Positions 39,405-40,103 of a stretch of 64,000 bases of DNA are shown here, piece by piece. The notes under the pieces are model-generated. The model did no database searches and was not told the DNA's origin. It saw only the letters and a list, made by a program, of their open reading frames with translations. The DNA is taken from the sequence record PQ400055.1; one strand, given 5' to 3'. Numbering within the stretch: position 1 is the first letter of the stretch; the number at the start of each line of letters is the position of its first letter. Source of the stretch: a phage. The position numbers and the translations under genes are program-made.

Positions 39405-40103
39405 CTAACCACGGGTATAGTGTTCCAGAACAACTGTCAGATGAATATATTCTAATAGATCTTTCCAAAAGTCAACATCTGGTTCTTCCGGCATACCGTT
39501 TTTCTTTGCCTCTTCACGCGCGAGTTTAACACGCTCGTAGAGATCTTTCAATTCTTCCCGCACATTATCAAAGGTTCTTTCTCCTAACTTACACGCTAAA
39601 ATAGAAGAACGTCGCGCGAGCGGGAATTGTAAATCACCTGTCTGATAGATTTCAAGTAGCTGATAACCAACACGCAGAGCATGAGAAAGATCTTTCCAGT
39701 TACTGAAATACTTTTCAGATTTGGCTACCTGCTTTTTGAGATAGCCAGACAAACCCCACATACCAACATGATAGAATTTATCGCGATGTGTTCGGATGTA
39801 TTCCCATTCTCTGGAGGATTCAACCAACATGTTACTAGGCGCGTGCACCATGTCAATAGCGCCGATATCGCCTTTACATGCCAGGTTGATAAACCGTTTT
39901 AGACTGAACATATTAACGTCAATATCGTCTTTGGTGTTCTTGATACCTTGACCGCTAGTGCTTTGATCATAGTGTTCTTTCATCGATCCTAAGATAATTT
40001 CTTTCGCAGTCGGAACAAAGATACCACGATAATCTTTATCGGAGTTTTCAGTATCAAGGCAGTATAAGTGAGATCCGAAAACCATTTTAACCATTGTATG
40101 CAT
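39405..40103 (-). CDS. nucleotidyltransferase-fold protein (Pol-beta-like NTase superfamily)
   Basis: 232 aa; ATG start; FGSHLYCLDTENSDKD (GS...DxD) then DDIDV third acidic residue, helical C-terminal domain. Confidence 0.55.
   Translation of the reverse strand: MHTMVKMVFGSHLYCLDTENSDKDYRGIFVPTAKEIILGSMKEHYDQSTSGQGIKNTKDDIDVNMFSLKRFINLACKGDIGAIDMVHAPSNMLVESSREWEYIRTHRDKFYHVGMWGLSGYLKKQVAKSEKYFSNWKDLSHALRVGYQLLEIYQTGDLQFPLARRSSILACKLGERTFDNVREELKDLYERVKLAREEAKKNGMPEEPDVDFWKDLLEYIHLTVVLEHYTRG

Follow-up and report, generated by a model that had tools for sequence, protein, structure and literature searches.

NrdC.11 of a Krischvirus phage: a minimal RlaP-family nucleotidyltransferase and probable RNA 3'-end-adding enzyme

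The 232-aa open reading frame (ORF) at 39405..40103 on the minus strand of the window (the 64,000-nt stretch of PQ400055.1 that was analysed) is the Krischvirus gene nrdC.11, and its product almost certainly belongs to the RlaP family (PF10127) of Pol-beta-type nucleotidyltransferases (NTases). By analogy with characterised bacterial members, addition of nucleotides to RNA 3' ends is the probable activity of the phage protein, and its placement as the gap-filling third component of T4-type tRNA repair, with 3'-end addition as the mechanism, is somewhat favoured; a specific role in tRNA repair and counter-defence is put forward only tentatively. The gene annotation, the family name and the RlaP identity of the T4 orthologue are already known, and no new kind of system is involved. 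What is new is minor, namely the insert-less architecture of the Krischvirus protein and a G15C allele in the window.

The gene runs from an ATG at 40103..40101 to a TAG at 39407..39405, and its G+C content (40.8%) is close to that of the window (40.2%). The coding sequence and its immediate signals are as follows:

39405..40103, minus strand: nrdC.11 coding sequence, RlaP-family (PF10127) Pol-beta nucleotidyltransferase, 232 aa (ORF, Pfam, PHROGs, nucleotide identity and AlphaFold2)
40111..40115, minus strand: Shine-Dalgarno GAGGG with the ATG 7 nt downstream (read from sequence)
40180..40156 (element 40134..40180), minus strand: terminator-like hairpin followed by a T run (consensus scan only)
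40162..40134, minus strand: sigma-70-like promoter match TTGGCT-17-TATGAT with TG (consensus scan only)

The hairpin and the promoter match predicted by the consensus scan overlap one another in the 86-bp gap 5' of nrdC.11, where they possibly mark transcript boundaries. Two plus-strand ORFs within the gene (39681..39902 and 39796..39951) were rejected as short shadow ORFs without support. At the DNA level, nrdC.11 matches 59 phage genomes, all of them Krischvirus (RB49, JSE, Phi1, kvi and others), at 98-99.9% identity; taken over the whole set of 59, nucleotide identity mostly falls at 95-99%, and 41 of the genomes reach 99% or more in the protein. The phage nearest to the window is kvi, with 24 differences over 6.7 kb, while the RefSeq record of JSE carries the gene name nrdC.11 and the product name "nucleotidyltransferase" (YP_002922172.1). 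Relative to JSE, the gene shows eight synonymous codon differences and one non-synonymous (dN 0.0018, dS 0.058), and this pattern indicates that purifying selection acts on it. In many GenBank records of phages the gene goes under 'thioredoxin' or 'glutaredoxin nrdC', and 'HNH homing endonuclease' occurs as well. The two redoxin names have apparently spilled over from the locus name nrdC.11, and no thioredoxin-fold match to the protein was found.

An earlier note on this DNA had described a stand-alone gene in the region between regB and the endolysin gene, and the arrangement is indeed so: RegB lies downstream, the endolysin upstream, and neither an RNA ligase nor an effector gene is adjacent. 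The order on the minus strand is endolysin, Vs.8, a 41-aa ORF, Vs.6, nrdC.11, three small ORFs, regB, vs.1, vs and tk.4, all the neighbours of nrdC.11 sharing its strand. The genes that bear on the argument are listed below:

36613..37068: macrodomain protein Tk.4
38127..38591, minus strand: RegB (PF10715), downstream of nrdC.11
38554..38946, 38947..39207 and 39189..39383, minus strand: three small ORFs between regB and nrdC.11
40190..40606, minus strand: Vs.6, 138 aa, stand-alone glycyl-radical domain (PF01228, E=2e-16)
41290..41679, minus strand: M15-type endolysin, upstream of nrdC.11
47298..47768, minus strand: 57B/Acb1-like 2H phosphoesterase with two H-x-[TS] motifs (HSTILYS and HITLSY), 7.2 kb from nrdC.11

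Several of these neighbours deserve a remark in their own right. Vs.6, directly upstream of nrdC.11, resembles the E. coli spare-part protein GrcA. The three small ORFs beside regB are tandem paralogues (36-42% identity) sharing the residues Y..T...I.L..C.HL....W, and no Pfam match was found for them. In RefSeq JSE, the 57B/Acb1-like gene bears the label 'RNA ligase', a name that probably arose as an artefact of LigT-family naming.

In RB49, JSE, Phi1 and kvi, NrdC.11 has the same 232 aa and the gene occupies the same site, between regB and vs.6/endolysin. JSE differs in having a homing endonuclease gene directly upstream of nrdC.11, which the window and kvi lack. This HNH/NUMOD4 gene stands between vs.6 and nrdC.11 in JSE (L001:5457-5987) and in a related metagenomic phage (L005:3951-4547), the corresponding place in the window (40104..40189) and in kvi being the 86-bp spacer only. 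In T4, nrdC.11 follows the nrdC.1-.10 genes and adjoins the HNH endonuclease gene mobD, far from regB; the genomic site thus differs from that in Krischvirus, and nrdC.11 may be a recurrent neighbour or target of homing endonucleases. A functional link between nrdC.11 and regB was considered and rejected, as the closeness of the two is not conserved in T4.

The assignment to the RlaP family rests on the catalytic motifs and on profile searches. The stretch FGSHLYCLDTENSDKD makes up residues 9-24 and DDIDV residues 59-63, with 36 residues from D24 to D60; the catalytic elements map as follows:

40071..40076, minus strand: G10-S11 codons, hG[GS] element of the NTase signature, invariant in a 16-sequence alignment
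40032..40040, minus strand: D22-K23-D24 codons, first two catalytic carboxylates (DxD), D22 and D24 invariant in the alignment
39918..39929, minus strand: D59-D60-I61-D62 codons, third catalytic carboxylate, within KNTKDD[IV]D; D60 invariant and D62 at least 90% conserved in the alignment

In this alignment, which extends down to 27% identity, the invariant positions are G10, S11, S21, D22, D24, P31, N56, D60, F71, G78, G120, Y121, K137, H141 and R144, D62 being nearly invariant, and the family motifs around the catalytic residues read GSHLYG, SDxDY and KNTKDD[IV]D. The sole Pfam match at E<=1 is PF10127, RlaP ("RNA repair pathway DNA polymerase beta family"; E=1.4e-12, 48.3 bits against a gathering cut-off of 23 bits), which spans residues 7-191 and profile positions 24-198 of 249. 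In PHROGs, the protein matches phrog_388 'nucleotidyltransferase' (E=1.4e-77), and a HMMER scan of 1.84 billion cluster representatives retrieved 3120 clusters at E<=1e-3, including 159 at E<=1e-30. All 79 full-length homologues retrieved carry PF10127. Given the two family matches, the 3120 clusters and the invariant catalytic residues, the conservation indicates that the motif has not arisen by chance. The earlier note had thus picked the right residues in its GS...DxD...D arrangement, and its proposal of a Pol-beta-type NTase holds at the level of family, sequence and predicted fold. No family match was found in NCBIfam, and the only PADLOC match (CARF/HEPN, E=0.031) is meaningless.

An AlphaFold2 model built on the 16-sequence alignment (mean pLDDT 91.9, pTM 0.88) contains the NTase fold, as a mixed alpha/beta core at residues ~1-96 with a strand starting at residue 61. 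The core is followed by an all-helical C-terminal domain (~98-230), made up of a helical domain at 98-201 and a long terminal helix at 210-230. Foldseek comparison with the PDB returned ANT(4') kanamycin nucleotidyltransferase, HalB of Hailong, AAD(9), LinB and Tam41 (E 3e-5 to 1e-3, TM 0.37-0.48), and on account of these matches the model is read as an NTase core joined to a HEPN/KNTase-type helical bundle; HEPN-type helical bundles are also among the best solved-structure matches. Among predicted viral structures (BFVD), many phage "nucleotidyltransferases" match at TM ~0.8, as do certain giant-virus proteins and the baculovirus HE65 proteins. Sequence searches of solved structures, with the single protein and with the 16-sequence profile, gave chance matches only (haemoglobin, N-glycosylase and designed proteins).

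T4 NrdC.11 has itself been named an RlaP, in cluster 5 of PF10127 (PMC12776372). The T4-type proteins of Tequatrovirus/T-even phages are ~336 aa long, against 232 aa in Krischvirus, and the two forms align in two blocks of 41-47% identity, so that both halves are homologous; both are PF10127 members and have the invariant catalytic and helical-domain residues in common. The difference in length lies in a ~100-aa insert, which splits the T4-type protein at the point where residues 131 and 132 adjoin in the Krischvirus protein, which has no such insert. In the model of a T4-type protein (P0017, pLDDT 87), the insert (~133-236) forms a helix, a beta-rich subdomain (beta-hairpins) and two further helices; it might be a nucleic-acid-binding module. 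It breaks the Pfam match, which covers P0017 only at residues 8-134, while the short proteins P0002 and P0080 are colinear with the RlaP profile nearly end to end. Judged from these alignments, Krischvirus NrdC.11 represents the minimal, canonical form of an RlaP, and the extra segment of the T4-type proteins would be either a lineage-specific addition or a segment lost in Krischvirus. The insert of the T-even-type proteins is absent from bacterial RlaPs as well. A metagenomic phage contig in which the gene order is unchanged encodes another short form, 57% identical to Krischvirus NrdC.11.

The only RlaPs characterised by biochemistry and structure are from Pseudomonas. The family name derives from the many members found in operons with RNA ligases, and Burroughs and Aravind predicted a function in RNA repair (cited for the name in PMC12776372, and for the prediction in PMC12776372 and PMC7824862). 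Two Pseudomonas RlaPs, whose genes lie between rtcB and rtcA, were characterised by Carruthers, Fatma and Huang in a preprint of December 2025 (PMC12776372). These enzymes put one or two NMPs on RNA 3'-OH ends, accept dATP too, prefer Mn2+, and leave DNA and E. coli proteins unlabelled (PMC12776372). On a mimic of cleaved tRNA they prefer the 3' end at the nick, and they also label full-length tRNA-sized and rRNA-sized species as well as single-stranded RNAs (PMC12776372). Where a tRNA had lost one anticodon-loop nucleotide before ligation, RlaP partially rescued its aminoacylation, and the authors remark that the 3'-OH product directly fits RNA ligases of the 5'-phosphate type (PMC12776372). 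In their proposal, RlaP counteracts "smart" ribotoxins such as RloC, in which cutting is followed by excision of a nucleotide; they also note that untemplated addition makes correct repair improbable per event (PMC12776372). Furthermore, the distribution of RlaP parallels that of RNA ligases in a comparison of jumbo phages (PMC7824862).

Krischvirus phages encode the remaining enzymes of such a repair route. In JSE, pseT (Pnkp) and rnlA (Rnl1) lie ~77 kb from nrdC.11 and are unlinked to it; no rnlB is annotated in the JSE stretches examined. The pseT-rnlA block was found in exactly 59 records, including kvi, with the same breakdown by organism and host as the 59 records of nrdC.11, and therefore the three genes co-occur, retained jointly despite the lack of linkage, in every sequenced Krischvirus (59 of 59). 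The placement of NrdC.11 as the third repair component is drawn from this co-occurrence and from the 3'-end activity of the bacterial RlaPs. Elsewhere in the family the contexts vary. In Gordonia phage Sephiroth, whose homologue is a distant one, the order is polynucleotide kinase, RNA ligase, PRPP synthase, NAMPT, a hypothetical gene, the RlaP homologue, an HTH gene and then a tRNA cluster; this stretch (NC_060135.1 51686-62261) combines RNA repair, NAD+ salvage (NAMPT) and tRNA supply in one compact block. An RF-2-like gene overlaps the RlaP homologue of mycobacteriophage Myrna; for the homologues of Myrna and Tourach no ligase was found within 5 kb, the context in Tourach being uninformative. 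The nearest bacterial homologue retrieved (Caldibacillus P0080, 27% identity) has a disrupted topoisomerase gene rather than an RNA ligase as its neighbour, showing that ligase linkage is not universal in the family; as to the link with repair itself, this context counts on neither side.

In the proposed mechanism, which is based on homology, D22, D24 and D60/D62 would hold two metal ions (probably Mn2+), and NrdC.11 would move one or two NMPs from NTPs to the 3'-OH of a broken RNA, above all that of the 5' half of a cleaved tRNA. A host anticodon nuclease would cut the tRNA, the 'smart' ones (RloC) also excising a nucleotide; the phage Pnkp (pseT) would then convert the ends to 3'-OH and 5'-P; NrdC.11 would refill the lost nucleotide, untemplated and hence correctly only sometimes; and Rnl1 (rnlA) would close the break. 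We infer a joint action of NrdC.11 with Pnkp and Rnl1, and its benefit to the phage would be protection from nucleotide-excising tRNases.

Several points speak against this reading. Besides the distance from pseT and rnlA and the unrelated neighbours of certain family members, as in Caldibacillus, the Pfam score is modest (48 bits), and the characterised enzymes belong to cluster 1a while T4 NrdC.11 falls in cluster 5. Untemplated addition seldom restores the correct nucleotide (PMC12776372), and T4 tolerates the loss of nrdC.11 on laboratory hosts (PMC9825161). Lastly, in the phage of the window itself, G15C may impair nucleotide binding.

One nucleotide separates this allele from the kvi gene (G to T at gene position 43, window 40061), and the resulting G15C is likewise the sole non-synonymous difference from JSE:

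40059..40061, minus strand: codon 15, TGC (Cys) in the window and GGC (Gly) in kvi and JSE, within the GSxxxG loop; private to the window

The window thus reads GSHLYC where every close relative has GSHLYG. Among homologues with a recognisable motif, residue 15 is Gly in 223 of 224 and His in the remaining one (Cys, 0 of 224). The exact window protein is absent from a collection of 15 billion proteins, and the Cys-variant 26-mer was not found in IMG/VR, where the Gly variant is present. In Pol-beta NTases, a second glycine soon after hG[GS] is common (GSxxxG) and sits in the nucleotide-contacting loop. The allele may therefore be weakened, possibly through nucleotide binding, unless the base was misread in sequencing. 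Since laboratory hosts do not require T4 to have nrdC.11 (PMC9825161), a weakened form could be retained, and G15C would then have disabled an accessory gene not needed on the propagation host. That the allele is weakened or dead, or misread, is nevertheless considered rather unlikely. Against it stand the otherwise intact ORF, the full set of catalytic carboxylates and the one homologue that tolerates His at residue 15.

Among the other explanations, each of which is less well supported than tRNA repair, the one that survives best is RNA tailing independent of ligation. Here, NrdC.11 would add 1-2 nt to tRNA acceptor ends (for example a partly trimmed CCA) or to mRNA or sRNA 3' ends, including the cleavage products of RegB or host RNases, and would alter their stability or usability instead of preparing them for Rnl1. 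The breadth of RNAs labelled by the Pseudomonas enzymes (full-length tRNA-sized, rRNA-sized and single-stranded; PMC12776372) agrees with this, as do the position of Krischvirus nrdC.11, unlinked to a ligase and three small genes from regB, and the bacterial family members that have no ligase neighbour. Recurrent linkage to RNA ligases is, however, what defined the family, and in vitro the 3' end at the nick of a mimicked cleaved tRNA is preferred (PMC12776372). The proximity to regB is not conserved either, T4 nrdC.11 lying next to mobD and far from regB. The window has no tRNA genes in its 64,000 nt, so that maturation of phage tRNAs provides no rationale for nrdC.11 here, and tailing as a whole is considered improbable.

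Far less credit can be given to a transfer of nucleotides to a protein or small molecule, of the kind by which MNT antitoxins AMPylate HEPN toxins or antibiotic NTases of the ANT/Lnu type act; a host HEPN RNase, for example, would be inactivated in this way. The Pseudomonas RlaPs leave E. coli proteins unlabelled (PMC12776372), Pfam gives no NTP_transf_2/MNT or aminoglycoside NTase match at E<=1, and no Rx4-6H RNase motif was found in the helical domain on reading the sequence. Further, NrdC.11 has neither an NTP_transf_2-type match nor a partner HEPN toxin with Rx4-6H. Just as slight is the probability that NrdC.11, instead of repair or besides it, is a counter-defence NTase resembling HalB, its nearest solved fold. 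Its product, either a short oligo(deoxy)nucleotide made without a template or a host factor carrying a nucleotide, would serve as a decoy or inhibitor of a host immune sensor; were this so, the insert-less Krischvirus form would be the minimal version of that activity.

The earlier note had also raised cyclic-oligonucleotide synthesis or counter-signalling by a CD-NTase/SMODS-like enzyme, acting with the macrodomain protein and the Acb1-like 57B, and this idea is not supported by sequence, structure or gene context. The generic hG[GS]...DxD...D signature is present, and both proposed partners are encoded in the same early-gene region; the two genes thus exist as claimed, but 'nearby' was loose, 57B being 7.2 kb and many small genes away, and both are conserved T4-type genes scattered through the early region that form no operon with nrdC.11. 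PF10127 is the sole Pfam family at E<=1, with SMODS, NTP_transf_2 (MNT) and CD-NTase-type families absent; the CD-NTase, CBASS, Pycsar and Thoeris models of PADLOC are unmatched; and a cGAS/DncV-like fold (NTase core with a PAP/OAS-type helical lobe) is not indicated, the 50-60 fold matches listed containing no structure of cGAS, DncV, a CD-NTase or OAS. For the characterised members of the family, the activity shown is extension of RNA 3' ends and not synthesis of cyclic products (PMC12776372), and no effector or signal-binding gene was found next to nrdC.11, whose neighbours are the three small ORFs, regB, Vs.6, Vs.8 and the endolysin. Equally remote is a HalB-like, template-independent and possibly protein-primed synthesis of oligo(deoxy)nucleotides as a decoy keeping a Hailong-type DNA-gated channel closed, as the similarity is at the fold level only (11-15% identity) and the sequence says PF10127, RlaPs add just 1-2 nucleotides and leave proteins unlabelled (PMC12776372), NrdC.11 shows neither membership of the HalB sequence family nor an adjoining HalA channel gene, and nothing ties Hailong to the phage of the window or its hosts.

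If the tRNA-repair reading of NrdC.11 is correct, it would add to the textbook case of RNA repair, T4 Pnkp and Rnl1, a refilling enzyme, conserved among T4-type phages, that would explain how phages might cope with anticodon nucleases whose excision of a nucleotide defeats simple religation. The refilling idea itself is already published, in the prediction of Burroughs and Aravind (via PMC12776372 and PMC7824862) and in the bacterial biochemistry (PMC12776372). For experimental work, RB49-type NrdC.11 offers a naturally minimal RlaP, colinear with the bacterial profile and hence a handy construct for biochemistry, and the natural G15C allele could be used as a built-in variant of the active-site loop.

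Compared with the characterised RlaPs of P. fluorescens (PfRlaP) and P. aeruginosa (PaRlaP), the Krischvirus protein shares PF10127 and the three catalytic aspartates, and in its predicted model an N-terminal NTase domain is likewise joined to a C-terminal helical domain with a long helix at its end; in the crystal structure of PfRlaP, the terminal helix packs back on the NTase domain (PMC12776372). The differences lie in gene context and subgroup. PfRlaP and PaRlaP are encoded in an RtcR-controlled operon, whereas Krischvirus nrdC.11 is unlinked and the phage has the 5'-phosphate ligase Rnl1; in the published network, the two Pseudomonas proteins fall in cluster 1a and T4 NrdC.11 in cluster 5 (PMC12776372). 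HalB (9dbh, 9dbj) and ANT(4') (6un8, 1kny) are more distant, with 10-15% identity to NrdC.11, TM of 0.37-0.48 and no sequence-family match, and they act on other substrates, HalB making protein-primed oligo-dA and ANT(4') modifying aminoglycosides.
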